From Micromonospora parva (lineage in GTDB: Bacteria > Actinomycetota > Actinomycetes > Mycobacteriales > Micromonosporaceae), in the NCBI RefSeq assembly GCF_040649675.1, contig NZ_JBEZFX010000001.1, positions 1,111,095 through 1,143,094 on the forward strand: a stretch of DNA of 32,000 bases. The letters are read 5' to 3'. This document shows positions 6,582 to 32,000 of this stretch, piece by piece. Position numbers and translations under genes: made by a program. The first letter of the stretch is position 1. Each line of letters opens with the position of its first letter. A model generated the notes under the pieces. The model did not search any database. It was not told the origin of the DNA and saw only the letters and a program-made list of their open reading frames with translations.

Positions 6582-6626
6582 CCGGGCGGCGTCGAGCGAC
6601 GCACCCGGATCGGCACTGGGCGCGGC

Positions 6627-6662: not shown

Positions 6663-6669
6663 TCAGCGC

Positions 6670-10219: not shown

Positions 10220-10221
10220 TG

Positions 10222-10266
10222 TGGTGCGCCGCCAGGGACTCGAACCCCGAACCCGCGGATTAAGAG
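10222..10266 (-). other. att site: 3' 45 nt of a tRNA-Lys(CUU) (anticodon loop to CCA), with no 5' half
   Basis: The minus strand reads CTCTTAATCCGCGGGTTCGGGGTTCGAGTCCCTGGCGGCGCACCA. This gives the anticodon loop CUCUUAA, the T-arm CGGGG-TTCGAGT-CCCTG, the acceptor 3' strand GCGGCGC, the discriminator A and CCA. The required 5' acceptor strand GCGCCGC and the 5' anticodon-stem strand GCGGA are absent from the adjacent 10267-10300. The xis-int-att order is the arrangement known for actinomycete integrative elements. Confidence 0.75.
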
Positions 10267-15488: not shown

Positions 15489-16294
15489 GATATATTAGGA
15501 TGCCCGCTCCCCCCCACCCGGAGTGGCTCAAAAAGGCGGCGGATATTCTAGCTGAGCTGGACGAGGCGTCAAGCTCAGATGAGCGGCATAAGATCATCGA
15601 CGACAACGCCGCGTTTTGGGGGCAACTGAAGCCTTGGCTACTTGAGCTGTCCCATAAGAAGTGCTGGTTTTCAGAGGCCAAGGATTGCTTCAGCCACTGG
15701 GACGTTGAGCACTTCAGGCCGAAGAAGTCCGCTCGCGGAATTAACGGCGAAACGGACGACGGATACTGGTGGCTGGCCTTCGACTGGCGCAACCTTCGAA
15801 TCTGTGGCACGGCTGGAAACCGGAAGAAGGGCACGTTCTTCCCTGTCCGCGAACTGACCCAGCGCGCGACCCGCGATAGTGATTTACGCGCCGAGCAGTT
15901 CGACCTCCTCGATCCTGCAGACGAAGAAGATCCCGCCCTTCTGTTCTTCAATGTTTTCGGTGATGCCATTGTTGCCCCGTACGTCACAGACTCATGGGAG
16001 CAGCATCGGGTGAAATACTCGATAGAGCGTTACAATCTCAATTCGTTTGAGGCGCTTCGCACGAAGCGGCAACAGCGATGGTCCGAGTGTTGGGGCTATA
16101 TCTGCGAGTACCGGAACGAACTAACGGCCTTCCAACGAGACTCGAGCAAGGTGATTGCCCGCGACCGTGCTAAACGACTGGCCGGAACGATCCGAGCAAT
16201 GCTTGGAGAGGACGAGGAGTTGTCGGCCGTTGCACGCGCTTGCCTTATCAGCGCCAATGACCCTCGTCTGTTCGGCTTCTTGCAAAGCAAATGA
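15485..16294 (+). CDS. ptuB: HNH (His-Me finger) nuclease, TIGR02646/PtuB-like
   Basis: TTGA overlap with the ATPase at 15485-15488; the alternative start is ATG 15500. The N-terminus LRYIRMPAPPHPEWL matches this family as I remember it. So does the core KKCWFSEAKDCFSHWDVEHFRPKK...YWWLAFDWRNLRICGTAGNRKKGTFFP (consensus C-x-Y-C-E ... EHF-x-PK ... W-x-NL ... C-x-x-CN-x-x-KG). Each CxxC pair appears reduced to one Cys. Confidence 0.7.
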   Translation: MRYIRMPAPPHPEWLKKAADILAELDEASSSDERHKIIDDNAAFWGQLKPWLLELSHKKCWFSEAKDCFSHWDVEHFRPKKSARGINGETDDGYWWLAFDWRNLRICGTAGNRKKGTFFPVRELTQRATRDSDLRAEQFDLLDPADEEDPALLFFNVFGDAIVAPYVTDSWEQHRVKYSIERYNLNSFEALRTKRQQRWSECWGYICEYRNELTAFQRDSSKVIARDRAKRLAGTIRAMLGEDEELSAVARACLISANDPRLFGFLQSK

Positions 16295-16637: not shown

Positions 16638-18110
16638 CTATGCCGGCCTTGTTGAGCCACGTCGTCGCGGGACGACCGATGCGGTTGCTTCTGCCGCGGC
16701 ATGAGATAGCTCGGGTAGAACGTCGCCGTAGAACTTGGCGGTGAAGTGGGGGCTGGAGTGTCGGAGTCGGTTGGAGATGACTTTCATCTGGATGCCGGCG
16801 GCGAGTCCCATGGTGGCGGTGCCGTGGCGGAGGTCGTGGAGCCGGATGGGTGGTAGCCCGGCTTGCGTGGCGAGGTGGTGGAAGTGGTCGGTGACGTCGG
16901 CAGGGTGGAGTCGACCACCGGTGGGTGTGGTGAACACGAGTCCGGTGGTGGTCCAGGCAGCACCGGCGGCGAGGCGTTCGCGGTGTTGCCGAATGCGGTG
17001 GGCGCGCAGCACAGCGACGGTCTCAGTGTCGAGAGCGACCGCGGCCTCGCTGTCGGTGGTTTTCGGAGTGTCGATGGCGGTGGCCCAGCCGTGTTGGACG
17101 AGTTGCCAGCGAACGGTGAGGGTGGCTGCGTCGAGGTTGAGGTCGTCCCAGTGCAGGCCGCAGGCTTCGCCGCGGCGGAGGCCGGTAAAGGTGACGAGGT
17201 GGTAGAGGGCGTAGAGCCGGTCGCCGGCGTCGTGGGTGTGGTCGAGGAATCTGCCGGTGTGTTCGGGGGTCCAGATCATGACGGGGCTGGGGGTCTTGCC
17301 GGTGTCGCGCCAGGTGCGGATGCGTTGGTCGGTCCAGATGGTGGGCTTGGGTGGTCGGGCGGTGGGTAGTTCGACCATGAGGGCGGGGTTAGTGTCGATG
17401 TAGCGGTGCCGGCGTATCGCGTCGTTGAGGGCCTTGCGCAGGGTCGCGTGGATGACGTGCAGGGTCCGGTTGCCGACGATCCGCCGGTTCTTGACCTGGT
17501 CACGTTTGGCGGGGTCGCGGCTGGCCCGCAGGGCGGCGACGGTGGTGTTGCGTTCGGCGATGGCGTCGTACATGGCGTCGATGTGGCCGGGGCGGAGCCG
17601 GTCGATGCGTAGGTGGCCGAGGTGCGGGATCAGGTACAGCCGGATGTGCCCCTCGTAGGAGCGCAGGGTGCCGGTCTTGATGTTCTTGCGTCCGGCGAGC
17701 CAGTCGGTCAGGTACGCCTGCATCGTCGGGAGTTCGGTGGGGGTGATGTCCAGGTGCAGCGTCCGCCGAACCTGGTCCGGGGCGGGAACCGGCGCGCCGG
17801 TCTTGATGGCGGTTTCGATCAGGTCGCCGGTCTTGACGGTGGTGTGCGCGTCGGTGGGATCGGGGACGGCGAGCGCGGCCCGGATCCGGTCCAGGACGGC
17901 GTCCGCGTCGGCCTGGGTGGCGTAGGGGCCGTGACGGAGTGGACGGCGGGTGCCGTCGGCGCGGGCGGGCACTTCGATTTGCCAGTGCCAGTGGCCGTGG
18001 GTGCGGGACCAGCCGCCGCCGGGCCGGCGTAGCTGGGGACAGGAGCGTCCCAGTCGCCGGCCCGTGACGCTGTCGCGGCAGCCGCAGCGTTTGAAGGTGG
18101 ATCCCTTCAC
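16638..18110 (-). CDS. int: Tyrosine recombinase / integrase (second, unrelated copy)
   Basis: Track ORF of 490 aa with a GTG start. The N-terminal MKGSTFKRCGCRD...RTHGHWHWQI is typical of actinomycete element integrases. Catalytic pattern: FTGLRRGEACGLHWDDL (Arg), HDLRHGTATM (H-x-x-R), RLRHSSPHFTAKFYGDV (His...Tyr). Confidence 0.9.
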   Translation of the reverse strand: MKGSTFKRCGCRDSVTGRRLGRSCPQLRRPGGGWSRTHGHWHWQIEVPARADGTRRPLRHGPYATQADADAVLDRIRAALAVPDPTDAHTTVKTGDLIETAIKTGAPVPAPDQVRRTLHLDITPTELPTMQAYLTDWLAGRKNIKTGTLRSYEGHIRLYLIPHLGHLRIDRLRPGHIDAMYDAIAERNTTVAALRASRDPAKRDQVKNRRIVGNRTLHVIHATLRKALNDAIRRHRYIDTNPALMVELPTARPPKPTIWTDQRIRTWRDTGKTPSPVMIWTPEHTGRFLDHTHDAGDRLYALYHLVTFTGLRRGEACGLHWDDLNLDAATLTVRWQLVQHGWATAIDTPKTTDSEAAVALDTETVAVLRAHRIRQHRERLAAGAAWTTTGLVFTTPTGGRLHPADVTDHFHHLATQAGLPPIRLHDLRHGTATMGLAAGIQMKVISNRLRHSSPHFTAKFYGDVLPELSHAAAEATASVVPRRRGSTRPA

Positions 18111-18508
18111 TCATCGTCTCCTGGATGCTTCGTATGGTGCCGCCAGCGGTGCCGGGTGGAATCCGCTGGCGGCGGGGTCATCGCATCCACGCTCACCTTC
18201 GCGTCGGCATCAAGTCGCCCACCGCTGGCCCCGTTGGGTTCGGGTTGGAGGAGGTAGAGAAGGGCGGCGACCGGGACGATGATGCGGCTGCCTGCCCGGA
18301 TTAGCGGGACGGGGAACTGGTTGGTGGCGGCGAGCCGGTAGGCCTGGGATCGGCTGATCCCGAGCACGGACGCGGTGGTGGCGAGGGTGGTAGTCACGCC
18401 GAGGGCACGGATGCGCTCGATCGTCCACACCCGCCCGACGCTGGGCGCGGTGGTGTTGTCGGTCGTCGTGCGGGTTGTCTGGTCAGCGGGGTTCGTTGGG
18501 CTGTTCAT
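18107..18508 (-). CDS. xis: Excisionase-family HTH protein
   Basis: Start placed at ATG 18508 (MNSPTNPADQ...), with AGGAGAA 8 nt upstream. HTH segment: TTASVLGISRSQAYRLAATNQFPVPLIRAGSRIIVPVAALLYLL. GTGA overlap with int at 18107-18110. Confidence 0.75.
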   Translation of the reverse strand: MNSPTNPADQTTRTTTDNTTAPSVGRVWTIERIRALGVTTTLATTASVLGISRSQAYRLAATNQFPVPLIRAGSRIIVPVAALLYLLQPEPNGASGGRLDADAKVSVDAMTPPPADSTRHRWRHHTKHPGDDE

Positions 18509-19415
18509 GATCAGGCTTCTCCTGGTTGTGAGATGAATAGCTGTGCGGTAGGAGCGGGGTAGCCCTGTCGGGCTCGACCGGCGCAGGGGTGGCTGCTCCG
18601 CCACCATCGCGCCGCTCCGGTACGCGTCGCTCCGGTGACAGAGGCGGTGATGTCGGGTTGGTCGGCATGACCGGGCTCACGATCAGTCCGGGTAGTGCCG
18701 ACGACTCGACCTTGAGGGTCTTGAGCAGTTCGGATATTCGGGTGTTGGACACGGTGTGACCGTCTGCGCGGAGGGCTTCGGCGAGTGCTGCGCGGGTCAG
18801 TGCCTGGCCGTCTGCGGAGAGCCGGTCTCGGACTTTTCGCGCCGCTGGCAGCAGCTCGGTCACCGCGCGGGGCGGCTGCGGGGACGGTCCCCGGTCCGCT
18901 CGCCGCCGCCGTTCCCGTCCGCCCCCGTGACGACGAGCATCCGATGAGCGGACGGTCCGGTTGCTGGACCGCTCCCCCGCCGTGACGGCGGACCGCACGG
19001 TCTCGTCCGGTCCGCTGTCCGGACGGGTCCATCCGGCCTCATCCGGTTGGCAGTCCGCAACCGCCACGGCAGGGGCGGGCGTGGCGGTGCTGGTGCGGCC
19101 GAGGGCGATCTTGACCATGACGAGGAAACCGAGCGCGGGTACGGCGGCGGTGATCCACCCGATGACCGAGGGTTCGGCCTCGACGACCTGCGCTGCCAGG
19201 GACAGGGTGACCGCACACGCCAGCACGGTCGCCGGGAACACGGTGGAGGTGTGAGCGCGTTTGCGGCGGCGTAGTTCCAGGCCGGAGGCGATGGACATCA
19301 GCTCCAGGACGATCGCGTCGGCCCAAGCCAGCCAGCCGGGTTGGCCGTGCGCGGCGGCTACGTTGTGCACGTGGGTGAAGCTGGCCGCTCCGGCTGCGCC
19401 GCCAATGGCCAGCAT
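18483..19415 (-). CDS. DUF2637-like membrane protein (Spd-type, common in actinomycete integrative/conjugative elements)
   Basis: Track ORF of 310 aa. The N-terminal half has 3-4 TM spans and the pattern AASFTHVHNVAAAHGQPGWLAWADAIVLELM. The C-terminal half is charged and disordered, with an HTH-like stretch LTRAALAEALRADGHTVSNTRISELLKTL. It overlaps the xis start by 26 nt. Confidence 0.6.
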   Translation of the reverse strand: MLAIGGAAGAASFTHVHNVAAAHGQPGWLAWADAIVLELMSIASGLELRRRKRAHTSTVFPATVLACAVTLSLAAQVVEAEPSVIGWITAAVPALGFLVMVKIALGRTSTATPAPAVAVADCQPDEAGWTRPDSGPDETVRSAVTAGERSSNRTVRSSDARRHGGGRERRRRADRGPSPQPPRAVTELLPAARKVRDRLSADGQALTRAALAEALRADGHTVSNTRISELLKTLKVESSALPGLIVSPVMPTNPTSPPLSPERRVPERRDGGGAATPAPVEPDRATPLLPHSYSSHNQEKPDHEQPNEPR

Positions 19416-19657
19416 GATGACGACCTGGACGACGCCCTCGACGCGGCTACCCCGCAGCCCCGCGTTCGGGTCAGTGGCCGGTGCCGTCGTGGTCCATCAC
19501 CTCCTCGACCCAGACCGGAACAACGAGCCGTCCGCCTGTCACAAGAGGCCGGACCGGATGGCGGACCGACCCGGCGTCGGACAACCATCGGGACGGGGAC
19601 CGCACGTCGGCCGCGGACCGCCCGCCGCAGCCGCTGGACCGGGATGCGGTCCCGCGG

Positions 19658-19730
19658 CTGTGAGAGCGGACGTTCGGTGCTCTCACAGATCTGTCAGCAC
19701 CGGCCGAGCTGGTCACGACAGATCCGTGAC
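19658..19730. promoter_or_regulatory. Cluster of palindromes between the DUF2637-like and replication-relaxation genes
   Basis: CTGTGAGAGC (19658-19667) pairs with GCTCTCACAG (19679-19688). There is a perfect 10-bp palindrome ACAGATCTGT (19685-19694) and a near-copy ACAGATCCGT (19718-19727). The near-copy is embedded in GTCACG-ACAGATC-CGTGAC (19713-19730). Confidence 0.6.
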
Positions 19731-19796
19731 AGACGCCGGCCGTTGCTGTCCGATCCGCAGCGGAGGTACTGTCCGCCGCCGTCGTGTCGTCGCCCA

Positions 19797-20684
19797 TCAC
19801 GCGGCCTCACCCGCCCGGCTAGAGACGTCAACGACGTAACCGGCCAGATCAGCCAGCCGCAGCCGCTGCCCTTCTCCGCCGGCCACGGCCCACACCGCCT
19901 CCGCTGGGCCCAGGCCGGCCGTCGCGGCGTGGTCGCGAGCACCGGTGGCCACCGGCAACGGCAGCGGCACGTCGGCCAGCACGCGGCGCAGGTTGCGCTC
20001 CCGGGCGGCCGAGTGCAGCCAGAACAGCACCGGCCATGCCCGCCCGAGCGTCCCGAACAGCTCCTGATAGCCGTTGACCTTGCCGGCCAGAATCGACAAC
20101 TGCTCTGCGCCGGTGTCGTACTCGACGAAGAACGGCACCTCGACACCGTTGTCGACCCACCGGCCGTAGCCGTCCGGGCGCACCCGCGGCTGATACGCCC
20201 GCACCAGCCCCGGATCCTGCCGGCTGGTGAACGTACCGGCGAGCTGGCACACCGCCTCCGGCAACCACTCCACCAGACCGGTGCCCGGACGGGTGCGGGC
20301 GTACCCGGCCAGGTCGGTGAAGAACCCGCTCACCCCCAGGCGGTGGGCGAGGCTGCGCGTTGACGTCCAGCGCCGCCGCTCCACCCGGGCGTGGTCGCGC
20401 CGCGGTGGGCGTTCGTCCCGGCTGGCCGCGACGACCTCTGCGCCGAGCTGGTCGATGACGTAGTGGTACGGGTACGAGCCGCCGTCGGCCCGCTGTGGCC
20501 GGAACCGGGCCACCAACCGCAACCGGTACAGGGTCCGCAGCCGCCGTTGACAGAAGTCCAACGACGGGAATAAGGCGTTCGCGATTTGGAACGACGTCAA
20601 CACGCCGTGGTCGTACATCCAGCCCAGCAGCACCCGGTCACGGCCGGTCAGTTGGGACTGGACCCGAAGGACGGGATCATCCAC
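19797..20684 (-). CDS. Replication-relaxation family protein (Replic_Relax-like)
   Basis: Track ORF of 295 aa. It has an N-terminal wHTH (LTGRDRVLLGWMYDHGVLTSFQIANALFPSLDFCQRRLRTLYRLRLVARF...YPYHYVIDQLG). It also has the C-terminal block VRPDGYGRWVDNGVEVPFFVEYDTGAEQLSILAGKVNGY, characteristic of this family. Confidence 0.75.
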   Translation of the reverse strand: MDDPVLRVQSQLTGRDRVLLGWMYDHGVLTSFQIANALFPSLDFCQRRLRTLYRLRLVARFRPQRADGGSYPYHYVIDQLGAEVVAASRDERPPRRDHARVERRRWTSTRSLAHRLGVSGFFTDLAGYARTRPGTGLVEWLPEAVCQLAGTFTSRQDPGLVRAYQPRVRPDGYGRWVDNGVEVPFFVEYDTGAEQLSILAGKVNGYQELFGTLGRAWPVLFWLHSAARERNLRRVLADVPLPLPVATGARDHAATAGLGPAEAVWAVAGGEGQRLRLADLAGYVVDVSSRAGEAA

Positions 20685-21171: not shown

Positions 21172-21684
21172 ATGTCCGCCCCTGCACCGCATCCGTTGCT
21201 GTTCCTCGACGTCGACGGCACCCTCATCCCGTTCGGAACACCCACGGCGACTCAGCCCGGCATGCCGCATGGCTACACCGAGGCACCGGTCCTACCGGCC
21301 GACGCCCATCCCCTGCTGGACAGGGTCGATCCGGAACACGGCCGCCGGCTGGAGTCCCTACCGTGTGACCTGGTTTGGGCGACGACCTGGATGAACGACG
21401 CGAACGACGTGCTCGCGCCCCTGCTCGGGCTACCGCCCCTGCCGGTTGTGGACTGGCCCGACTCTGACGAGGTTGGCGTCCTGCACTGGAAGACCCGTGG
21501 GCTGGTCGAATGGGCGCACGGACGCCCCTTCGTCTGGGTCGACGACGAGATCTCTCACGCCGATCAGCAGTGGGTATTGGCTCATCACCACGCCCCGGCC
21601 CTGCTGCATCGGGTCGACCCACGTCGCGGGCTGACCGAGCACGACTTCACAGTCATCGAGAGCTGGCTCATGCAGGCGCGGTAG
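21172..21684 (+). CDS. HAD-superfamily hydrolase-like protein
   Basis: Track ORF of 170 aa. HAD motif I is LLFLDVDGTLIPFG. Later motifs are VWATTW and an acidic motif FVWVDDE. Confidence 0.65.
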   Translation: MSAPAPHPLLFLDVDGTLIPFGTPTATQPGMPHGYTEAPVLPADAHPLLDRVDPEHGRRLESLPCDLVWATTWMNDANDVLAPLLGLPPLPVVDWPDSDEVGVLHWKTRGLVEWAHGRPFVWVDDEISHADQQWVLAHHHAPALLHRVDPRRGLTEHDFTVIESWLMQAR

Positions 21685-22618: not shown

Positions 22619-23096
22619 CCCCCGATGATCCTCCGGGCGCCGTCAGTCCGACATCCCGTTCCCGGCAGCCCTAACAGGGAGTAGTCGACGCGCCAACCCG
22701 GAGATCGAAAGATGGGACCACTGTGACCGGAGACAGCGCTCGAGGTGGGCCGTTGGACGAGACATCGGCGGGACGTGCGAGCACCCACATACCCAAACCG
22801 TGGTTTCGGGGCCGATTTTGGAGATCACTGTTCAGCAAATCAGCCGAAGAGCTGAGGACAGAAAACGCGTAACAGTCAAATCGGACCACCATTAGTTGAT
22901 CTCCATGATCGGCACCGCACTGCAGCACTGATCTCTCAGAGGCGCGCGACAAGCCCATCCCGATTCGGCGATGACGCGCCACGCACCGACACGGTGGTTA
23001 CTGAAAGTAATGACGCTAGGAGCGTGTCATGTGTCATCCTTCTGTAGCGGACTTCAGCGCCAAGGGCAGGCCCGTAGGGTCGGTCGGGTGGCCGAG

Positions 23097-23585
23097 ATGC
23101 AGACCGAACCGGACCCCTCCTACATCGCCAGCGTGACGCGGGTCCGCGCGGCGGCCGGCGCGCTCCTCCGCGACCGGGCCGGCCGGGTACTGCTGGTCCA
23201 CCTGGCCTACAAGGACGTGTGGGAAATTCCCGGCGGAACCCTGGAGCCGGACGAGTCCCCGGCGGACGCCTGCACACGCGAGATCCGGGAAGAACTGGGC
23301 CTGTCGGTACCCGCAGGGGCGCTTCTGTGCGTCGACTGGGTGCTGGCGAGCCCGCCATGGGACGGCGGGCTCATGTTCGTGTTCGACGGCGGGGTGCTGA
23401 CGGCGGACCAGATCGCGGCAATGCGGCTGTGCCCGGACGAGCTCGACGGCTTCGAGTTCGTCGAGCCGGAGCGCCTGGGCGAGGTGTTGATCCCCCGACT
23501 GGCTCGGCGGGTCACCGCAGCGGTCGCCGCGATCGGGCAGGGCGGTGTCTACCTCGAAGACGGAGCCGCGCCTTCCAACAGGTAG
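23097..23585 (+). CDS. NUDIX hydrolase
   Basis: Track ORF 22971..23585. I prefer ATG 23097 (MQTEPDPSY...). Nudix box: GGTLEPDESPADACTREIREELGL (G-x5-E-x7-REUxEExGU). Confidence 0.85.
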   Translation: MQTEPDPSYIASVTRVRAAAGALLRDRAGRVLLVHLAYKDVWEIPGGTLEPDESPADACTREIREELGLSVPAGALLCVDWVLASPPWDGGLMFVFDGGVLTADQIAAMRLCPDELDGFEFVEPERLGEVLIPRLARRVTAAVAAIGQGGVYLEDGAAPSNR

Positions 23586-23727
23586 CGAGCCGGATTGAAT
23601 CGTCGGCCACGGACGCATGCCCAGCCGAAGTGGTTCCCCTCCCACCGATGAGGTACCCCGATCCCGTGCGACTGCCCCGCCTGCGGCACACGTTGATCCG
23701 CCTGGGCCCGAGGGGCACAATCCCAGA

Positions 23728-24384
23728 ATGATCTCGAGCGTGTTCTTCGACGTGGGTGAGACGATTGTCGACGAGTCCCGGGAGTACGGCACCTGGGCCG
23801 ATTGGCTCGGCGTCCCACGGCACACCTTTTCGGCCGTCTTCGGCGCGGTCATCGCTCGCGGTCTGGACTACCGGGAGACGTTCCAGGTGTTCCGGCCGGG
23901 GTTCGACCTCGCCAAGGAACGGCAGCGCCGGACCGCCGCTGGGCAGCCGGAGCACTTCGCCGAGGAGAACCTCTACCCGGACGCCCGGCCATGTCTGGCC
24001 GCTTTGCAAGAGTTGGGCATGCAGGTCGGCCTGGCCGGCAACCAGACCGCCCGAGCCGAGACCATCCTGCGCGCCCTTGATCTGCCCGTCGACGTGATCG
24101 GCACCTCGGACGGCTGGAACGTCGAGAAACCGTCGGCCGCGTTCTTCGACCGCGTCGTCACGGAGGCTGGCTGCCCCGCCGACCAGGTGCTGTACGTCGG
24201 AGACAGGCTGGATAACGACATCCGGCCGGCGCAGGCGGCCGGGCTTGCGACCGCCCTGGTGCGACGCGGCCCATGGGGATACATCCTCGACGACAAGACC
24301 ATCAGCGACCGCTGCCTCTTCCACCTCGACTCGCTGGCCGAGTTGCCCGGGCTGGTACGTAGGCACAACGAGTCGGCGGCTTAG
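23728..24384 (+). CDS. HAD-superfamily hydrolase (subfamily IA-like)
   Basis: Track ORF 23617..24384. I prefer ATG 23728 (MISSVFFDVGETIVDE, motif I). Motif IV is YVGDRLDNDIRPA. Confidence 0.8.
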   Translation: MISSVFFDVGETIVDESREYGTWADWLGVPRHTFSAVFGAVIARGLDYRETFQVFRPGFDLAKERQRRTAAGQPEHFAEENLYPDARPCLAALQELGMQVGLAGNQTARAETILRALDLPVDVIGTSDGWNVEKPSAAFFDRVVTEAGCPADQVLYVGDRLDNDIRPAQAAGLATALVRRGPWGYILDDKTISDRCLFHLDSLAELPGLVRRHNESAA

Positions 24385-25712
24385 CTCCCCGGAAGAGCGG
24401 CCCGGCTGGCCGCGAGGGCGGCGACGCGTTCGTCAAGTTGGCTGCCCTCGCGGCTGTCGCCGAGTACCTGCCGGACGGCTCTGACCCGCTCCAGCCCCGT
24501 GCCGTACCAGTCGGCCTGCAGGGCGTCCAGGGCCTGGTTGAGGTAGTCGGCGGCGTGGTCTCCGTCGCTGCTGTGCGCCGAGGCCAGGTCGGCGAGGACG
24601 ACGCTGCGCTGCTTGGCGCCCGTCGCGGTCAGGCCGGCGAGAGACGTGGCCAGGTGGCGGGCGGCCTCGGCATGGTCGCCAGCGGCGAGAACTGCATAGC
24701 CAGCGAAGGAATGCAGTCGGTCTGTGTCGTAGTAGTCGAACCATTCGGGCATTTCGGGTCGCGTCGTGATCGCGGTCGCTGCAAGGTCGATCTGATGGCG
24801 GCTTGCTGCCCCAGCCCCGGCGCGGGCTTCGACTTCCGAGGCCACGCAGTGCAGCCAGGAGCGGACGGCGGGGCTGACGCCGTGCCAGGTGTGCTGGAGC
24901 GCCGCGTCGATAAGTGATCGGGCAGCGGTCGGATCATGTCCGAAGGCCGGGATGAAAGCCATGTGGCCGAGGACGGTGGCGGCCAGCGCGTGGTCTCCGG
25001 CCTCACGGGTGGCGGCGAGGGCTACGTCGTAGCAGCGTTGCGCGACGGCAGGCTGGTTGAGATCGAAGAATGCCAGTCGTGCGGTGAGGAGCGCCGACTC
25101 GGCGAGGGCGCTGGCGAGGGTCGCCCGGCTGGTGCCGGTGGCCGCGCGGACGAGTCCGGTGCCGAGCTGTGTGTGTGCATACGCAGCCTCGTACAGCGGG
25201 CGTGCGGGGCTGGTCCAGTACAGCGTCCGCTGGCACCGCACGATCTCGGCGTAGGCCCTTGGATCTATGGCCTTGGCTTGGGCGTACGCAGCCTGCGGAT
25301 CGAGTGATAGCAGCGGCGCCACCAGGGGAAGCATGCTGGCGCCGAACAACGCGCGCAGGACGCTGGCCCGATCCCAGCCGGTTTCGTCGCCTCCAGTGAT
25401 CATGTCCCACAACCTCCTGAACTCGTGCAGTGTCTCTGCCTGCGGACGCATCGCCAGCTCGTCCGGAGTGAGCAGTCCCAGCTGATCGGCTGGCTTGTCG
25501 AGGATGGCCACGAGATGTTTGCGGTAGCGCGGGTCGGGCCAACGCTCACCGGTTTCCCACCGCCGCACTGTGTTGGCGTTCAGCCCGGTATCGGTCTCGT
25601 CGGCGTGACTCATCTCCGTACGGATCCGCTCGGCGATCTCCTCGTAGGACCAGCCCCGCTGGAGCCTTTCCCACGCTAGCCGCCGGTTGGCGGGGTAGCG
25701 CCGTCCGGTCAT
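24381..25712 (-). CDS. XRE-family HTH transcriptional regulator with long helical-repeat (TPR-like) C-terminal domain
   Basis: Track ORF of 443 aa. The N-terminus is LAWERLQRGWSYEEIAERIRTEM...NTVRRWETGERWPDPRYRKHLVAIL. The rest is Ala/Leu-rich helical repeats. Its stop overlaps the convergent HAD stop. Confidence 0.8.
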   Translation of the reverse strand: MTGRRYPANRRLAWERLQRGWSYEEIAERIRTEMSHADETDTGLNANTVRRWETGERWPDPRYRKHLVAILDKPADQLGLLTPDELAMRPQAETLHEFRRLWDMITGGDETGWDRASVLRALFGASMLPLVAPLLSLDPQAAYAQAKAIDPRAYAEIVRCQRTLYWTSPARPLYEAAYAHTQLGTGLVRAATGTSRATLASALAESALLTARLAFFDLNQPAVAQRCYDVALAATREAGDHALAATVLGHMAFIPAFGHDPTAARSLIDAALQHTWHGVSPAVRSWLHCVASEVEARAGAGAASRHQIDLAATAITTRPEMPEWFDYYDTDRLHSFAGYAVLAAGDHAEAARHLATSLAGLTATGAKQRSVVLADLASAHSSDGDHAADYLNQALDALQADWYGTGLERVRAVRQVLGDSREGSQLDERVAALAASRAALPGS

Positions 25713-26336: not shown

Positions 26337-27308
26337 GTGACGGCGCGGGTGTTGGTGACCGGCGCCGCCGGCTTCATCGGTTCGCATGTCGTCGACGCGC
26401 TCCTGGCCAGAGGAATTCAGGTGGTCGGCCTGGACCGCCGCCGGCTCGGTCAGGATGCGCTCGCCGATGAGAATTTGGCAGCCGCAGCCGCCAATCCGCT
26501 GTTCACACCACTCTGCCGGGATCTGGCCACCGACTGCCTCGATGACGCCATGGACGGCTGCGACGTCGTGTTCCACCTGGCTGCCCGGCCGGGCGTCCGG
26601 CCCTCTTGGGGTTCGGAGTTTCACGACTACGCCCAGTCCAACGTCCTCGGCACCCAACGGCTGCTCGACGCGTGTGTGCGATCGGGCGTTCGGAGGCTCG
26701 TCTACGCCTCCTCGTCCAGCGTCTACGGGCCGGCAGACCGACCCAGCCGCGAGAACGACCGGACCAGCCCGGTCTCCCCGTACGGAGTGAGCAAGCTCGC
26801 CGCCGAGCAGCTCTGCGTGGCCTACGCGTGCCGCCCCGACAACCGGCTCAGCGTCGTGGCCCTGCGCTACTTCACCGTGTACGGGCCGCGCCAGCGACCT
26901 GACATGGCCATCGGCCGACTGCTGTTCGCGGCCTATACCGGTCTGCCGGTCACCCTCTTCGGCGACGGCAGCCAACGGCGGGAGTTCACGTACATCACCG
27001 ACGTCGTCGCCGCGACGATCGCCGCCTCTCAGGTAGATGCCCAGTGCGCCGTGGTGAACATCGGCGGCGGAGCGAGCGTTTCCATGCGGGGCGCGATCCA
27101 GGAGGCGTCCACGGTCACTGGACGGCACATTCCGGTCCAGGTAGCCGACGTCCAGCCGGGTGACGTTCCCTCGACGGCCGCTGACCTGACCCTTGCCGGC
27201 CGGCTACTGGGCTACTGGCCCACCGTCGGCCTGCACGAGGGCATGGCCCGGCAGTCCGCCTGGTTGGTCAACCTCTCCCGCGACCGACTCACCGCGTTCG
27301 CCTCCTGA
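26337..27308 (+). CDS. NAD-dependent sugar-nucleotide epimerase/dehydratase (extended SDR)
   Basis: Track ORF 26292..27308. The start is probably GTG 26337 or 26349, just before VLVTGAAGFIGSHVVDAL (Rossmann GxxGxxG). The catalytic motif is YGVSKLAAE (YxxxK). ASSSSVYG is also present. Confidence 0.85.
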   Translation: MTARVLVTGAAGFIGSHVVDALLARGIQVVGLDRRRLGQDALADENLAAAAANPLFTPLCRDLATDCLDDAMDGCDVVFHLAARPGVRPSWGSEFHDYAQSNVLGTQRLLDACVRSGVRRLVYASSSSVYGPADRPSRENDRTSPVSPYGVSKLAAEQLCVAYACRPDNRLSVVALRYFTVYGPRQRPDMAIGRLLFAAYTGLPVTLFGDGSQRREFTYITDVVAATIAASQVDAQCAVVNIGGGASVSMRGAIQEASTVTGRHIPVQVADVQPGDVPSTAADLTLAGRLLGYWPTVGLHEGMARQSAWLVNLSRDRLTAFAS

Positions 27309-27326
27309 CGGAAGGAAACCCTTTTC

Positions 27327-28280
27327 ATGATCGTTTTGACTGCGGACTCTGCGAGCGAACTCTTCGCCGCCGCCAGTCAGGCGGTGCTGCTCAACGGCCG
27401 TATCGCCTGCCCGCGCGACATGATGACCACCGAGGTCGTCGGCGCGCACCTGTGCCTGACCAACCCTCGGCGCCGGCTGGTCTCCGTGCCACCCGTACGC
27501 GTCATCAACCCGGCATTTGCCGTCGCTGAGGCGCTGTGGATCCTCTCTGGCTCGGATGACCCGTGGATCTTCGACTTCAACGACAACCTGCGGCGCTACG
27601 CGGACGACGGGATCCTGCAGGGCGCGTACGGGCCACGGATCCGCCGGTGGGGCGGCGACCTCGACCAGCTCGACGCGGTCGTCCGGAAACTGACGGCCGA
27701 CCGAGACTCCCGACAAGCCGTCGTCCAGATCTACGACCCGGCACGCGACCACCGCGGCTACCGGGACGTGCCGTGCACCCTCGGATACCGGTTCCTGATC
27801 CGGCAGGGCCGGCTCGAGATGCACACCAGCATGCGCAGCCAGGACCTCTGGCTCGGCTTCCCATACGACATCTTCGCGACGACGCTACTGCAGGAGCTGA
27901 TGGCCGGCTGGCTTGGTGTCGAAGTCGGCGAGTACCACCACCACGTCGACTCACTGCACCTCTACGCCGACCATGCTCCGGCTGCCGCTGAATGTCTCCG
28001 CCACGAACCGACCGTCACCGAGATGGATCCGGTCGTCGTGGACTGGCCCAGCCTGGATGTTGTCCTCGCGCAGGTCATCTCCGGTGACGGCGACCTGCCC
28101 GACGGCACCCTGTGGGACACGTTCGGACGGGTGCTGACCAGCTACCGGACATGGAAGCTCGGCGAGCGGGACCTGGCTAGCAAGATCGCCCACGACGCCC
28201 CAGGGCCGCTCGGCGCTGCCCTCGTCGCCTGGTACCAGCACCTCACCCGGCCGGCTCTCGTAGCGCCGGAGTTGGCATGA
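27327..28280 (+). CDS. Thymidylate-synthase-fold enzyme, probably a cytosine-nucleotide C5 hydroxymethylase/methylase
   Basis: GAAGGA lies upstream of ATG 27327. ThyA-family blocks: DQLDAVVRKLTADRDSRQAVVQIYDP, the catalytic Cys in DVPCTLGYRF (Cys150, nt 27774-27776), RSQDLWLGFPYDIF and HHVDSLHLYADH. Asp181 (nt 27867-27869) occupies the position of ThyA Asn177 in the LPFN motif. Confidence 0.8.
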   Translation: MIVLTADSASELFAAASQAVLLNGRIACPRDMMTTEVVGAHLCLTNPRRRLVSVPPVRVINPAFAVAEALWILSGSDDPWIFDFNDNLRRYADDGILQGAYGPRIRRWGGDLDQLDAVVRKLTADRDSRQAVVQIYDPARDHRGYRDVPCTLGYRFLIRQGRLEMHTSMRSQDLWLGFPYDIFATTLLQELMAGWLGVEVGEYHHHVDSLHLYADHAPAAAECLRHEPTVTEMDPVVVDWPSLDVVLAQVISGDGDLPDGTLWDTFGRVLTSYRTWKLGERDLASKIAHDAPGPLGAALVAWYQHLTRPALVAPELA

Positions 28281-29986
28281 CCGCGGATGTGGTGCTTGGG
28301 CTGTGCGCGTATACGCATGACTCGGCGGCGGCGCTGCTGGTTGACGGCCACCTGATCGGCTTCGTCGAGGAGGAACGGCTCGACGGGGTCAAGCACAGCA
28401 AGGCATACCCGGCATTGGGTGTCGCCTGGCTGCTCGGCAAGGCCGGTCTGTCGCCGTCGAACGTGACCACGGTCGCGTACAACTTCGACGGGCGCCGCTA
28501 CCTACGTGCGCTGGGTCAACTGCCGACCCATCTGCGACAGGCTGTCAGCCGCGCCCGAGCCGTACCACGGGCCCGCAGCTTCACCACGGTCCACCGCCGC
28601 TACCAGGCCCGGATGCGAGACCTGGCCGAGCGTTTTCCACGCGCACACCTCCAGCCAGTGCCGCACCATCGCGCGCATGCCCTGTACGCCTTCGCCGCCG
28701 CCGGTGTGGATGACGCAGCGGTCCTGATCGTCGACAGCCTCGGCGAGTTGCAGACCACCACCACCTGGCACGCCCGCTGGCGCAACCCGCAACTCCGCCT
28801 CGACCTGGCACACGCGATCGACGACCCGGCCTCCCTCGGTTACGCCTACGGTGCCGTCACCGAACAGCTCGGCTGGCGCCGCGGTGACGAGGAAGGCACC
28901 GTGATGGCGCTGGCCGCCCTCGGCGACCCCGCCCGGTTCCGAGAGCTGATATCCCGGGCGATCCGGCTCACCACCGACGGGTTCACCCTCGACCCAGCGC
29001 TGATCGCCCTGCGGGTGCTCGCCAGCCGCTACGGCCGGGTCACACCCGCGTTCACCGCCGCAACGTGCCCGCCCCGCCCGCCGACGGCACCGGTAGAACC
29101 TGTGCATGCCGACCTGGCCGCTGCACTGCAGGAACGCACCGAGCAAGTAATGCTGCATCTCGCCGCGCGAGCCCGCCGGCTGACCGGCTCCGGGCTGCTC
29201 TGCCTGGGCGGTGGGGTCGCGATGAACTGCGTAGCCGCCGGCCTCATCGCCCAAGCCGGCATCGTTGACGAGATACACGTACCACCCGCCCCCGGCGACG
29301 CGGGCACCGCGATCGGCGCCGCCGCCCACGTCTGGCTCGAGGCGACCGGCCGCCCACCCACCGGCATACGCCACCACTGCTACCTCGGCCCCGCCTATCC
29401 CGACCTGGCACTACCGGCCGCACCACGAGCGGGACTGCACGCCAGCCGCCCCGCCGAACCCGCCCACCATCTGGCCCGGCAGTTAGCCGACGGGGCAATC
29501 GTGGGCCTGTTCACCGGCGCGCTGGAGGCCGGCCCACGGGCACTGGGGCACCGGTCGATCCTCGCCTCTCCCCTGGAAGCCGGCGTGGTCGAGCGCCTCA
29601 ACGCCACCGTCAAGTTCCGCGAACCGTTCCGACCTTTCGCCCCTGTCGTACTCGCCAACAAGGCCACCGACTACTTCCGGCTACGCCAACCGTCGCCGTA
29701 CATGTCGCTCGCAGCTCCCGTGACCGAGCTGACCCGCGACAAGCTGCCCGCGATCGTGCACGTCAACGGCACCGCCAGGGTCCAGACCGTCACGCGCGAG
29801 CAGCACCCCTTCCTCGCCGACGTTCTCACCCGCTTCGGTGAGATCACCGGCCACCCCGTGCTGATCAACACCTCACTGAACATCAAGGGCAAGCCGATCT
29901 GCGGCACACCAGAAATGGCCCTGGAGTGCCTGACCGAATCCGGCCTCGACGCACTGCTCATCGAAGACCAGTGGGTGACCAAGTGA
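28277..29986 (+). CDS. NodU/CmcH-family carbamoyltransferase
   Basis: ATGA overlap with the previous gene. The N-terminus VLGLCAYTHDSAAALLVDGHLIGFVEEERLDGVKHSKAYP and the C-terminus VLINTSLNIKGKPICGTPEMALECL are the family hallmarks. Confidence 0.9.
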   Translation: MTADVVLGLCAYTHDSAAALLVDGHLIGFVEEERLDGVKHSKAYPALGVAWLLGKAGLSPSNVTTVAYNFDGRRYLRALGQLPTHLRQAVSRARAVPRARSFTTVHRRYQARMRDLAERFPRAHLQPVPHHRAHALYAFAAAGVDDAAVLIVDSLGELQTTTTWHARWRNPQLRLDLAHAIDDPASLGYAYGAVTEQLGWRRGDEEGTVMALAALGDPARFRELISRAIRLTTDGFTLDPALIALRVLASRYGRVTPAFTAATCPPRPPTAPVEPVHADLAAALQERTEQVMLHLAARARRLTGSGLLCLGGGVAMNCVAAGLIAQAGIVDEIHVPPAPGDAGTAIGAAAHVWLEATGRPPTGIRHHCYLGPAYPDLALPAAPRAGLHASRPAEPAHHLARQLADGAIVGLFTGALEAGPRALGHRSILASPLEAGVVERLNATVKFREPFRPFAPVVLANKATDYFRLRQPSPYMSLAAPVTELTRDKLPAIVHVNGTARVQTVTREQHPFLADVLTRFGEITGHPVLINTSLNIKGKPICGTPEMALECLTESGLDALLIEDQWVTK

Positions 29987-31017
29987 AGATTGGCTACAGC
30001 TTTTGGGGATTCCTCGGAACCGGCATCACCGACACCCCGGACGGAGGCCGCAGCCACCGCCGGACCTTGGTCGACGGGCTACGTGCAGCCGGCCGTGACA
30101 TCGTCTTCCTTCAACCCAACCGGGACCTGTGCGAGGCCGGCGACGATCTCACCGGCCACTACCGCTGGGACGTCGGCCTGCCCGATATCGACGCACTGTT
30201 CCTCGAATGGCGCTGGCCCATTCCCGGCCGCAACACCACCGTCTGCGGGCGACCCGGCCATACCTGCGACCTGCATCGGCAGGCCGATCTACTCGACCAC
30301 TACACCCACCAGCTCGGCACCCCAACGATCCTGTGGGACAAGGACCGTCGGCTGCCCGCAGCGGACCCCCTGCGCCGAACCCGCAACGTCACCGTCTGCG
30401 AACCCGCTCTGCACCCGACTCCGGGCGCGGTACCACTGCTCTTTCCTGTCGCCGACACGGCCATCGACGCCGCCGACCCCACCACGCTTGTAGCCCTGCC
30501 CCGTCGCACCCCGCTGGTCTACATCGGCAACCAGTACGACCGCGACCACCCGTTCGACACCTACTTCGCGCCGACCGCCGCGCAACTCCCTCACCTGATC
30601 GCCGGCAAGTGGGCCGACACCAGGCGCTGGCCGAATCTGAACTTCATCGGCCGAGTCCCGTTCCCCCGCGTCTCCGCGATCTACGCCGACGCGCTCGCCA
30701 CCGTCCTGCTGCTGCCCGCCCGATACGCCGCCGCCGGGCAGATGACCCAACGAATCTTCGAGGCCATCCTCGCCGGCTGCGTGCCGCTGCTGCCCGCCGA
30801 CGTCCGAGGCGCCAATGCGTTCGTTCCCTCGTCGCTGATCGTTGGCGACGCCGCAGACGTGCGACACCGCATCGGTTGGCTCACCGAGATCGCCGGCACC
30901 GGTGAGCACGCCAGCCTCATCACCGAATGCCTCCGTCACCTCGACCCGTTCCGGCTCTCAACCCAACTCGAAGTGCTCGACTACCTGCTGCGCCACCCGG
31001 AGCCGGTGCGGTCATGA
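29983..31017 (+). CDS. GT-B-type glycosyltransferase-like protein (CgeB/T4 beta-glucosyltransferase-like by pattern)
   Basis: Track ORF 29926..31017. I start it at GTG 29983 (GTGA overlap with the carbamoyltransferase stop). The C-terminal block GRVPFPRVSAIYADALATVLLLPARYAAAGQMTQRIFEAILAGCVPLLP resembles the sugar-donor domain of GT-B enzymes. From memory, the overall layout parallels T4 BGT: KIGYSFWG vs KIAIINMG, WDKDRRLP vs TDIRLPF, VYIGNQYD vs VIYGGSFR, and TQRIFEAILAG vs TLRVWETMAS. Confidence 0.5.
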   Translation: MKIGYSFWGFLGTGITDTPDGGRSHRRTLVDGLRAAGRDIVFLQPNRDLCEAGDDLTGHYRWDVGLPDIDALFLEWRWPIPGRNTTVCGRPGHTCDLHRQADLLDHYTHQLGTPTILWDKDRRLPAADPLRRTRNVTVCEPALHPTPGAVPLLFPVADTAIDAADPTTLVALPRRTPLVYIGNQYDRDHPFDTYFAPTAAQLPHLIAGKWADTRRWPNLNFIGRVPFPRVSAIYADALATVLLLPARYAAAGQMTQRIFEAILAGCVPLLPADVRGANAFVPSSLIVGDAADVRHRIGWLTEIAGTGEHASLITECLRHLDPFRLSTQLEVLDYLLRHPEPVRS

Positions 31018-31068
31018 CTCACCGTGTCACCACCGAACGAGCTCACCGCACCTCTACCCTGGAGAACC

Positions 31069-31590
31069 ATGGACAGGATCGCCATCATCGGCTGCGGCGG
31101 CAGCGGCAAGTCCACCGTCGCGCGCCAGTTGGCCCGGATCCTCGACGTGCCGCTGACTCACCTCGACGCGACCTACTACGACGAGCACTGGAAGCCGCTA
31201 CCGCAGGACGAGTTCGCCGCCCAGCAGGAGAAACTCGTCGCTGGCGAACGTTGGCTCATCGAAGGAAACTACGCCGGCACTCTGCCCATCCGGCTTGCCG
31301 CCGCCGACACCGTGATCTTTCTCGACCTGCCCGCCTCGACCTGCCTGTGGGGCATCGCCCAACGCCGCTGGCGCTACCGCGGCGGACAACACCACAAGGA
31401 CGGCGTCTACGACCGCATCACCTGGAACTTCGTCCGCTACGTCCTCAGCTACCGGCGCACTATGCGCCCGCGAGTCCAGGACCTTCTCCGCGAGCACGGA
31501 CCACACGTCCGCTTGATCACCCTCACCAGCCGCCGCCAGGCCGCCCATCTGATCAACCGCGTCCGCGACGAGCATCAGCCCGTGACCTGA
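31069..31590 (+). CDS. P-loop NMP-kinase-like protein (adenylate-kinase/'topology modulation protein' family)
   Basis: Track ORF 31024..31590. I prefer ATG 31069, with GGAGA upstream. Motifs: Walker A RIAIIGCGGSGKSTVARQL, then LTHLDATYYDEHW, WLIEGNY and DTVIFLDLP. Confidence 0.75.
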   Translation: MDRIAIIGCGGSGKSTVARQLARILDVPLTHLDATYYDEHWKPLPQDEFAAQQEKLVAGERWLIEGNYAGTLPIRLAAADTVIFLDLPASTCLWGIAQRRWRYRGGQHHKDGVYDRITWNFVRYVLSYRRTMRPRVQDLLREHGPHVRLITLTSRRQAAHLINRVRDEHQPVT

Positions 31591-31614
31591 CCGCAGCGGG
31601 ACGGGAGGCGACAG

Positions 31615-32000
31615 ATGTCGGCCAACCCGTTCCTTGACCCCGCCCTGGTCAAGGGCGACCTCTACCGGGGCGACGGCCGGCTCGCCGACCGCACCCACGC
31701 GCTGCATCGCGCCAAGATCAGCGGAAGCGACGTCGCCGACACGATCGCCAACATGCTCGCCGCCCGGGTTCCACGCGGGGCGGCCGTGCTCGACATCGGT
31801 TGCGGGCGCGGCACCACAACCCTGCGCCTGGCCGACCGGCTCCGGCCCCGCCGGCTCTTTGCCGTCGACGCCTCGGTCGCGCTTCTCCGCACTACCCGCG
31901 ACCGCCTCGGCGCCGCTGGCGCGTTGGGCTCAGTGGTGTGCGCTGACTTCCACCACCTGCCACTGCCGGGCAGCGTGGCCGACGCTGCGGTTGCCGCCTT
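31615..32000 (+). CDS. Class I SAM-dependent methyltransferase (5' part; continues beyond the right edge)
   Basis: GGGAGG lies upstream of ATG 31615. My own translation reads MSANPFLDPALVKGDLYRGDGRLADRTH...AAVLDIGCGRGTTTLRLADRL...FAVDAS...CADFHHLPLP (motifs I, II and III). It is not in the ORF track because there is no stop in the window. Confidence 0.8.
   Translation, partial: MSANPFLDPALVKGDLYRGDGRLADRTHALHRAKISGSDVADTIANMLAARVPRGAAVLDIGCGRGTTTLRLADRLRPRRLFAVDASVALLRTTRDRLGAAGALGSVVCADFHHLPLPGSVADAAVAA

Follow-up and report, generated by a model that had tools for sequence, protein, structure and literature searches.

A widespread, mobile actinomycete operon built around a ThyA-fold enzyme and a candidate route to tailored 5-hydroxymethylcytosine nucleotides in Micromonospora parva

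The present analysis concerns a stretch of 32,000 nt of the genome of Micromonospora parva (contig NZ_JBEZFX010000001.1, positions 1,111,095-1,143,094 of the forward strand, assembly GCF_040649675.1), hereafter referred to as the window, and an operon at its right-hand end that encodes a thymidylate synthase (ThyA)-fold enzyme together with sugar-processing, carbamoyl-transferring, nucleotide-processing and methylating enzymes. The proteins of the window are 100% identical to M. parva entries and its G+C content is about 70%. Gene calls were taken from a listing of the open reading frames (ORFs) and the junctions between genes were read base by base. Six tightly packed genes on the plus strand span positions 26337-32000 (Table 1), and a ribosome-binding site, GGAAGGAAA, lies upstream of the ATG of the ThyA-like gene. 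The reading of the junctions agrees exactly with the co-directional arrangement and the spacings given in an earlier note made from the sequence alone (the original prediction), which had however placed the sugar epimerase last in its heading, while it is the first gene of the series. The operon was also said there to continue beyond the right edge, and it does: extension through two near-identical Micromonospora loci (L006 and L009, 95-97% identical; L numbers designate the loci compared here) shows a full methyltransferase of 271 residues followed by three further genes, for an APH-type kinase (247 residues), a His_Phos_1 protein (217 residues) and a second APH-type kinase (269 residues), and thus nine genes rather than six. 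Searches against Pfam assigned a family to each of the six products in the window, the glycosyltransferase only weakly.

Table 1. Features of the window and of the loci carrying the second operon type; positions are those of the window unless a locus is named
Feature	Position	Strand	Remarks
Tyrosine integrase, DUF2637 protein, Replic_Relax protein	16638-20684	-	Pfam; backbone of the integrative element carrying the operon
HAD_SAK_2 stand-alone protein	21172-21684	+	Between two Replic_Relax genes
NUDIX hydrolase, candidate accessory enzyme for sanitising nucleoside triphosphates or hydrolysing dCTP	22971-23585	+	Pfam NUDIX, E = 4.8e-17
HAD-family phosphatase, candidate accessory nucleotidase	23617-24384	+	Pfam Hydrolase/HAD_2; weak matches to pyrimidine 5'-nucleotidase models
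NsdA-family helix-turn-helix/tetratricopeptide regulator	24381-25712	-	NF053720, 192.7 bits against a cut-off of 75; divergent from the operon
Small ORF of 59 residues	26161-26340	+	TGA overlaps the GTG start of gene 1 (GTGA)
Gene 1, short-chain dehydrogenase/reductase (SDR), predicted UDP-glucuronate 4-epimerase	26337-27308	+	First enzyme gene of the operon
Gene 2, ThyA-fold pyrimidine C5 hydroxymethylase (predicted)	27327-28280	+	18-bp gap before it
Gene 3, NodU/CmcH-type O-carbamoyltransferase	28277-29986	+	ATGA overlap with gene 2
Gene 4, GT-B glycosyltransferase, CgeB-like Glyco_trans_1_2 type	29983-31017	+	GTGA overlap with gene 3
Gene 5, P-loop kinase, adenylate-kinase/FlaR ('topology modulation protein') type	31069-31590	+	51-bp gap
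Gene 6, class I S-adenosylmethionine (SAM) methyltransferase	31615 to beyond 32000	+	24-bp gap; the window covers the N-terminal 128 of about 271 residues
Type II operon, L091	L091 4925-11582		
Type II operon, L172	L172 5210-11053		
Type II operon, L173	L173 5239-11074		

A comparison of gene neighbourhoods, which the original prediction had proposed as a check, was carried out by scanning a profile of the ThyA-like clade over species-representative genomes; 258 matching stretches were obtained and 80 loci were kept, for which the presence of each gene was scored in a tblastn matrix. A seven-gene core in the order SDR, ThyA-like enzyme, carbamoyltransferase, glycosyltransferase, P-loop kinase, methyltransferase and APH-type kinase is kept in about 70 of the 80 loci. 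The carriers include Micromonospora, Plantactinospora, Salinispora, Actinoplanes, Catellatospora, Amycolatopsis, Pseudonocardia, Nocardia, Frankia, Kitasatospora (the sequenced carrier Kitasatospora setae, record AP010968.1, among them), Streptomyces, Nocardiopsis, Thermoactinospora and Promicromonospora as well as metagenome-assembled genomes (MAGs) of Egibacteraceae and Solirubrobacterales, and outside the Micromonosporaceae the proteins share 50-70% identity with those of the window. Because this gene order recurs over so many loci of many actinomycete families, the operon is a real and selected unit and not a chance juxtaposition. The P-loop kinase gene, found in 76 loci, stands straight after that of the glycosyltransferase, and the pair of His_Phos_1 and second APH-type kinase genes is present in 45. 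A gene for UDP-glucose 6-dehydrogenase lies 3' of the operon in nine fetched loci (Nocardia, Amycolatopsis and a Pseudonocardiaceae MAG).

Some loci depart from this arrangement. Five of them from Kitasatospora, Streptomyces and Nocardiopsis (L066, L067, L074, L077 and L088) carry an extra small radical SAM enzyme of 280 residues between the glycosyltransferase and the kinase (at about 13750-14590 in L067), with weak best PDB matches to SkfB (44 bits) and the cytosylglucuronate decarboxylase BlsE (36 bits). A 187-residue gene on the opposite strand replaces the ThyA-like gene in Haloactinomyces albus (L174, 7412-7975), where the rest of the operon is complete including UDP-glucose 6-dehydrogenase, and an RNase_T exonuclease and XRE/DUF397 regulators are encoded upstream.

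The ThyA-like protein matches the Pfam family Thymidylat_synt (PF00303) with E = 2e-28, and its best PDB match is the CMP hydroxymethylase MilA (2.8e-35), with canonical thymidylate synthases at about 1e-17; its closest phage relatives are gp319 of Bacillus phage G (41%) and the dUMP hydroxymethylase of SPO1 (36%). The meaning of the diagnostic positions was taken from published work on ribo versus deoxy preference and the choice of cytosine (PMC5175136), on L143 and D169 (PMC13326640) and on N177 (PMC8670742), numbered as in the Escherichia coli enzyme where no other is named. Cys150 corresponds to C146 (Cys155 of MilA), the catalytic nucleophile; Asp181, at N177, indicates cytosine rather than uracil as the substrate; Asp147, at L143, indicates a hydroxymethyl rather than a methyl product; and Ser171 and Arg129 occupy the positions of Ala176 and Lys133' of MilA and indicate a preference for 2'-deoxynucleotides, so that the ribo-preference pair Lys133'/Ala176 of MilA and BcmA is not found. 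The diagnostic residues are all invariant in an alignment of 25 members, and the protein agrees with T4 gp42-type deoxycytidine monophosphate (dCMP) hydroxymethylases in each of the four sequence features tested. The enzyme is thus predicted to convert dCMP to 5-hydroxymethyl-dCMP. A 5-hydroxy-dCMP synthase was also considered and this reading was dropped, since Asp173, the equivalent of D169, is retained.

The SDR protein belongs to the Pfam family Epimerase (E = 9.5e-58), and its best solved relatives are MoeE5 (6kv9; 4.8e-79, 269 bits) and the Bacillus UDP-glucuronate 4-epimerase BcUGAepi (6zl6; 1e-65, 226 bits), while other SDR epimerases and dehydratases, including UDP-glucose 4-epimerases, score at most 153 bits. 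Both its closest relatives and the co-occurrence of UDP-glucose dehydrogenase are as looked for in an enzyme of this specificity, and the protein is predicted to be a UDP-glucuronate 4-epimerase of the MoeE5/BcUGAepi type, forming UDP-galacturonate from UDP-glucuronate. This affinity makes UDP-galacturonate the probable donor sugar of the pathway, with which the UDP-glucose dehydrogenase of some clusters fits.

The glycosyltransferase has only a weak Pfam match (Glyco_trans_1_2, E = 2e-4) and no match among PDB sequences. Its AlphaFold model (pLDDT 92.6, pTM 0.90) shows a GT-B fold, for which the top Foldseek matches, at TM-scores of about 0.6, are a tetrahydrobiopterin glucosyltransferase (9v0l) and T4 beta-glucosyltransferase (1c3j); the T4 enzyme ranks second (TM 0.61-0.64) and small-molecule GT-B enzymes score equally, so that the structural match to the model establishes the fold and not the acceptor. 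A Foldseek search against viral models gave generic GT-B matches only. The family is 55-68% identical across actinomycete orders and always adjoins a ThyA homologue, in two operon types. Four residues, Cys88, His93, Cys95 and His98, are invariant within residues 88-98 (CG.PGHTCDLH) of the N-terminal, acceptor-side domain, beside an invariant TPDGGRSHR loop, and the cluster could bind a metal or phosphate. The possibility that the protein is an analogue of cytosylglucuronate (CGA) synthase was rejected, there being no sequence similarity and no match to TIGR04467. A bacimethrin-like scheme of ThyA homologue, methyltransferase and a 'glycosyltransferase' acting as N-glycosidase was likewise rejected, as BcmB is a homologue of MilB and the window protein an unrelated GT-B enzyme.

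The carbamoyltransferase contains Carbam_trans_N (E = 9e-38) and Carbam_trans_C (E = 2e-62) domains and matches GdmN (5.5e-83), NovN (3e-80) and TobZ (5e-63) among solved structures; judged by its family it would use carbamoyl phosphate and ATP. The P-loop protein matches the model NF005994 ('DNA topology modulation protein') over its full length with 159 bits, under the cut-off of 215, and AAA_18 and Cytidylate_kin over its N-terminal part, and is predicted to be a nucleotide kinase. The methyltransferase matches Methyltransf_25 (E = 4e-13) and also Methyltransf_11; its full-length orthologue in L006 is related to BioC, of the carboxyl methyl-ester type (62 bits), to RebM (3bus) and to a glucose O-methyltransferase (6uv6). 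The best match of the His_Phos_1 protein is an alpha-ribazole-5'-phosphate phosphatase model.

Two other cluster types share components with the operon. A sister branch of the ThyA-like enzyme, 59-63% identical and with the same Arg/Ser/Asp signature, occurs in a different cluster in Streptomyces sp. NBC_01538 (L001/L049, 2214-14096) and in Pseudonocardiaceae (L043 and L036 also carry the cluster). This encodes a fusion of CGA synthase and N-deoxyribosyltransferase (TIGR04467, 266 bits), a pair of DegT aminotransferases together with an Acetyltransf_6 protein and a methyltransferase, a radical SAM enzyme resembling BlsE, a DUF6271 protein, a His_Phos_1 protein and an APH-type protein, and is likely to be a new nucleoside cluster of the hydroxymethyl-cytosylglucuronate type resembling those of mildiomycin and blasticidin. 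The fusion was found by tblastn only in loci of this type and never in those of the operon. The methyltransferase, His_Phos_1 and APH-type proteins of the two clusters were considered as orthologues, which was rejected in favour of a relation at the family level only.

The second of these, here called the type II operon, uses the same glycosyltransferase family (56-68% identical) in the order ThyA homologue of the MilA type (Lys/Ala, ribo), a dedicated nucleoside diphosphate kinase (NDK), a 390-residue protein without assignment, a DEDD/RNase_T-type exonuclease, an AAA_28 kinase, an aldo/keto reductase and the glycosyltransferase. Of its three copies, that in L091 lies inside a provirus of Kitasatospora atroaurantiaca, between minor-head and tail genes, and the other two are chromosomal. 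A relation between the AAA_28 kinase and the P-loop kinase of the first operon type was rejected, the Walker A motif alone being matched. To judge from their gene content, the two operon types firmly tie the glycosyltransferase family to a hydroxymethylcytosine nucleotide, and type II points to a ribonucleoside triphosphate.

The reading that we prefer, tentatively and at slightly less than an even chance, is that the operon is a mobile biosynthetic unit for a free 5-hydroxymethyl-(2'-deoxy)cytidine nucleotide or nucleoside with extensive tailoring. The ThyA-like enzyme, with the residue signature described above, would form 5-hydroxymethyl-dCMP from dCMP, methylene-tetrahydrofolate and water, and the SDR would supply UDP-galacturonate from UDP-glucuronate, some clusters bringing their own UDP-glucose dehydrogenase. 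The GT-B enzyme would then place the uronic acid on the nucleotide, most plausibly on the 5-CH2OH group, and the O-carbamoyltransferase and the methyltransferase would modify the sugar or the hydroxymethyl group, the latter enzyme yielding either an ether at a hydroxyl or a methyl ester at the carboxyl. The P-loop kinase, one or two APH-type kinases, the His_Phos_1 protein and the accessory NUDIX and HAD proteins may set the state of phosphorylation, possibly for cryptic or protective phosphorylation, nucleotide activation, sanitising of the pool or final dephosphorylation, and the NsdA-family regulator would control expression. The product could serve as an antibiotic, as a nucleotide analogue acting against phages, or in another role. 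The original prediction of a hydroxymethylcytosine nucleotide that is phosphorylated, glycosylated and then carbamoylated and/or methylated is borne out in part, as the ThyA residues, the fold of the glycosyltransferase and the conservation of the gene set agree with it. Of the two end products named there, a DNA base and a nucleoside natural product, both are still in play, and the balance of the evidence leans away from phage-style DNA hypermodification towards the free nucleotide or nucleoside.

This preference is given mainly because of two comparative findings, the sister cluster of the ThyA-like enzyme and the type II operon, in which the glycosyltransferase family is paired with a MilA-type ThyA homologue, NDK and an NMP-kinase-like protein. 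Since members of the ThyA clade with the same signature serve a cytosylglucuronate-type cluster, the 'deoxy' signature does not imply a destination in DNA. Further points in favour of a free product are the score of the carbamoyltransferase, 273-283 bits to the small-molecule enzymes GdmN and NovN against 87 bits (27% identity) to the phage 5-hydroxymethylcytosine enzyme of PMC8670742; the nearest relatives of the methyltransferase (BioC-type enzymes, RebM and glucose O-methyltransferases) and of the phosphatase; the placement of the regulator in the NsdA family above the curated cut-off; and the clusters with the radical SAM variant, with its weak similarity to cytosylglucuronate decarboxylase. 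APH-type kinases, histidine phosphatases and methyltransferases of this type are commonplace in small-molecule tailoring and self-protection. No homologue of the glycosyltransferase was found in 50,697 phage records, and among IMG/VR entries a single provirus carries one, within a type II operon.

Several points weigh on the other side. The conserved operon encodes no exporter and none is indicated in the Pfam-annotated flanks examined. It also encodes neither an N-glycosidase of the MilB/BlsM type nor a CGA synthase, and is therefore not a classical cytosine peptidyl-nucleoside pathway; no known natural product with this decoration could be named. By analogy, the set of dCMP hydroxymethylase, nucleotide kinase, GT-B enzyme, NUDIX protein and carbamoyltransferase mirrors the modules of phage DNA hypermodification, and T4 beta-glucosyltransferase is among the top structural matches noted above. 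Within the Micromonosporaceae a mobile element carries the operon beside restriction-modification and other defence-type genes, and the likeness to natural-product enzymes of actinomycetes may in part reflect shared taxonomy. The substrates given for every step after the first are inferred.

These observations bear on an alternative that we regard as unlikely though still a serious contender, namely hypermodification of DNA or another nucleic acid encoded by the mobile element, in which 5-hydroxymethyl-dCMP would be raised to the triphosphate and incorporated by the host polymerase, the NUDIX protein lowering dCTP, and its hydroxymethyl group would then be glycosylated with galacturonate; the base or the sugar would be carbamoylated and methylated on the DNA or before incorporation, and the modification would protect the DNA of the element or host from restriction or mark it as self. 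The ThyA-like enzyme has the exact T4 gp42-type signature (Cys, Asp177, Asp143, Ser167, Arg126'), a nucleotide-kinase-like gene belongs to the core, NUDIX genes recur beside the operon, and its integrative element lies among restriction-modification, TIR/PIN and DUF4238 genes; a copy of type II, moreover, is inside a prophage. Precedents exist in phages, where 5-carbamoyloxymethylcytosine is made by metagenomic contigs in which a carbamoyltransferase stands with an Asp177 ThyA homologue, and this carbamoyltransferase acts on DNA, RNA and 5hm-dCTP (Yang et al., eLife 2021, PMC8670742), and where clusters such as those of RB69 and DLP3 join a ThyA homologue, a deoxynucleoside monophosphate (dNMP) kinase, glycosyltransferases and genes of NDP-sugar synthesis (Lee et al., PMC13326640).

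Against hypermodification, however, stand the lack of the glycosyltransferase in all of the phage records, the far closer relation of the carbamoyltransferase to small-molecule enzymes, and the APH-type kinases, His_Phos_1 protein and BioC/RebM-like methyltransferase, which have no counterpart in the published hypermodification pathways compared. The regulators belong to the NsdA or WhiJ types, neither the operon nor the annotated flanks examined encode a nuclease recognisable as dependent on or sensitive to modification, and the glycosyltransferase is not basic (pI 6.5). The ThyA clade recurs in the cytosylglucuronate-type cluster, the glycosyltransferase family occurs also with a ribo-type, MilA-like ThyA homologue and NDK, and a replacement based on the nucleotide pool would change an entire chromosome of 70% G+C. 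That the operon specifically installs, in cellular or mobile-element DNA, 5-hydroxymethylcytosine bearing a galacturonosyl group that is carbamoylated and/or methylated, with the NsdA-family protein possibly as the switch, appears a shade less probable again.

The genes upstream of the operon provide some indication of its regulation and of accessory functions. The NsdA-family protein is likely to be its regulator; its position is the same in the Micromonosporaceae and Frankia, a 443-residue protein stands at this position in Kitasatospora setae, and the upstream regulators of other genera are NsdA-like or pairs of WhiJ-like XRE and DUF397 proteins. The original prediction had speculated on a link of the NUDIX and HAD genes to the pathway. 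For the NUDIX gene the link gains ground, as homologues 44-52% identical to that of the window flank the operon at other positions in Kitasatospora and Streptosporangiaceae (L066, L067, L075 and L080), further NUDIX genes flank it in L089 and L090 and one follows the type II operon in L091; the taxa with a NUDIX gene beside the operon include several distant ones. The HAD gene is co-located with the regulator and the operon in 21 loci and travels along only in the Micromonosporaceae and Frankia.

Most of the window is mobile DNA, as indicated by Pfam, with two Replic_Relax proteins encoded in it. In Plantactinospora and other Micromonospora, too, genes for the integrase, DUF2637 and Replic_Relax proteins stand upstream of the operon; the order integrase, DUF2637, Replic_Relax, HAD, regulator and operon is repeated there and the genes downstream are variable; in the Micromonosporaceae the operon is therefore the main cargo of a small integrative element. 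A scan for tRNA genes as attachment sites found none in the window. The cargo downstream consists of TIR_2 and PIN_12 genes in Micromonospora ureilytica (L006, 17527-19592) and of genes for a 233-residue protein and a DUF4238 protein in Plantactinospora (L008, 17466-19497), and the same YkuD gene follows in both, which suggests a hotspot of defence genes at the end of the element.

Such surroundings raise the possibility of an inducible anti-phage or conflict system, a special case of the small-molecule product, in which the pool of cytidine nucleotides would be converted to a bulky analogue that poisons viral nucleic-acid synthesis or brings it to termination, by analogy to the ddhCTP of viperin-type enzymes, with the NUDIX protein and the phosphatases shielding the producer. 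Besides the neighbouring defence genes, the dedicated nucleotide kinase and the NDK of the type II operon would imply a triphosphate product, and the recurrent NUDIX gene and the lack of an exporter are in line with it. PADLOC-DB 2.0, however, gives only a generic methyltransferase-domain match (mad2) and leaves the other nine proteins unmatched, the operon encodes neither a sensor nor an effector of the kinds typical in defence, the NsdA type of regulator is linked to development and secondary metabolism, and the neighbourhood outside the Micromonosporaceae is not obviously a defence island. We consider such a role improbable.

A small ORF of 59 residues, translationally coupled to the first enzyme gene, scores 68.8 bits, above the curated cut-off of 40, against NCBIfam NF041725 ('multiple cyclophane-containing RiPP AmcA', a model for precursors of RiPPs, peptides that are made on the ribosome and then modified post-translationally), and its copy in Plantactinospora 73 bits. 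It is kept in 19 loci of the Micromonosporaceae in the form MT[VL]YxSR...DPPLLTxVWQR, with the N- and C-terminal motifs conserved, the middle variable and insertions and deletions that keep the frame. It is conceivable that the enzymes tailor this peptide to a RiPP-like or peptidyl-nucleotide product, or that the ORF is a translated leader regulating the operon. Both are very improbable in view of the restriction of the ORF to the Micromonosporaceae, no copy being found in other genera, whereas the operon is spread much more widely, and because the Micromonospora operon lacks any enzyme for maturing peptides, whether a cyclophane-forming radical SAM enzyme or another; the searched literature held no paper on the AmcA family.

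The remaining genes of the window lie apart from the operon. The stand-alone HAD_SAK_2 protein contains the HAD domain known from 'Swiss Army Knife' proteins of RNA repair. An insert at 8851-16294, of 55% G+C in surroundings of 70%, carries its own integrase, HsdM and HsdS of a type I restriction-modification system, an AAA_21/AbiEii-like ATPase and a 269-residue protein without assignment, and looks like a newly acquired defence cassette. Genes at 1-8638, for a VirB4/TraG-like ATPase cut at the start of the window, a PrgI-family protein, an 844-residue protein without assignment and an N6_N4 DNA methyltransferase, are probably part of a separate integrative conjugative element of the type IV secretion system type, in tandem with the element of the operon.

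Comparison with known systems places the operon among pathways that begin with a ThyA homologue. The best solved relative of its SDR comes from the tailoring of unit F of moenomycin, where the UDP-glucuronate 4-epimerase MoeE5, MoeGT1 and the carbamoyltransferase MoeM5 provide galacturonate that is then carbamoylated, as proposed for the operon. The acceptor in moenomycin is a phosphoglycerate lipid and not a nucleotide, and its biosynthesis is not known to involve a ThyA-like enzyme. With the T-even pathway (gp42, the gp1 dNMP kinase, the gp56 dCTPase and the alpha- and beta-glucosyltransferases) the operon shares the active-site signature of the ThyA-fold enzyme, a gene for a nucleotide kinase, a GT-B glycosyltransferase alike in size and fold and, in some clusters, a NUDIX pyrophosphohydrolase nearby. 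It differs in its cellular, mobile-element setting, in the addition of a carbamoyltransferase, a methyltransferase, APH-type kinases, a phosphatase and a UDP-uronate epimerase, in a glycosyltransferase and a kinase unrelated to the T4 proteins at the sequence level, and in having a NUDIX protein, as an accessory only, in place of a gp56-type dCTPase.

The phage 5-hydroxymethylcytosine carbamoyltransferase system (PMC8670742) similarly sets an Asp177 ThyA homologue beside a carbamoyltransferase of the NodU/CmcH/TobZ family, whose genes overlap here; the window enzyme, however, lies outside the characterised phage clade and nearer to GdmN and NovN, and the pair here forms part of a nine-gene operon with a glycosyltransferase and kinases. 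The arabinosyl-5-hydroxycytosine clusters of RB69 and DLP3 resemble the operon in their ThyA homologue, dNMP kinase, glycosyltransferases and genes for an NDP-sugar donor, while the ThyA-like enzyme of the operon keeps Asp169, its sugar enzyme is a UDP-glucuronate 4-epimerase and not part of an arabinose pathway, and its setting is not that of a phage. In the pathways of mildiomycin, blasticidin and bacimethrin (MilA/BcmA, MilB/BcmB, MilC/BlsD and BlsE), MilA is nearest to the ThyA-like enzyme among its solved relatives, the donor is likely to be a UDP-uronic acid in common, and the sister ThyA branch belongs to a cluster of the CGA-synthase/BlsE type. The work on MilA, MilB and BcmB describes a natural-product route through free hydroxymethylcytosine (MilA residues in PMC5175136), whereas the operon has Arg/Ser in place of the Lys/Ala of MilA and BcmA, lacks the N-glycosidase and CGA synthase, and uses a glycosyltransferase of an unrelated, CgeB-like GT-B family.

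The searched literature held no paper on this operon, and the view in the original prediction that no described pathway has this combination holds there for the whole set and fails for the pair of ThyA homologue and carbamoyltransferase. Among the ThyA-initiated pathways of cytosine C5 tailoring, the operon stands as a variant that is widespread, mobile and uncharacterised. The pathways with a ThyA-fold hydroxymethylase that were found belong to phage DNA hypermodification or to a few nucleoside antibiotics, and the operon fits neither: it joins a phage-like front end of hydroxymethylase, nucleotide kinase, GT-B enzyme and NUDIX protein with natural-product-like tailoring by an O-carbamoyltransferase, a methyltransferase, APH-type kinases, a phosphatase and a UDP-uronate epimerase. 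Should DNA be the target, it would represent a ThyA-route hypermodified base made in the manner of phages in bacterial DNA, of the chromosome or of an integrative element. If its product is free, as we tentatively prefer, it would define a new class of nucleoside or nucleotide metabolites in actinomycetes, possibly with antibiotic or anti-phage activity, together with new enzymes acting on C5-modified cytidines.

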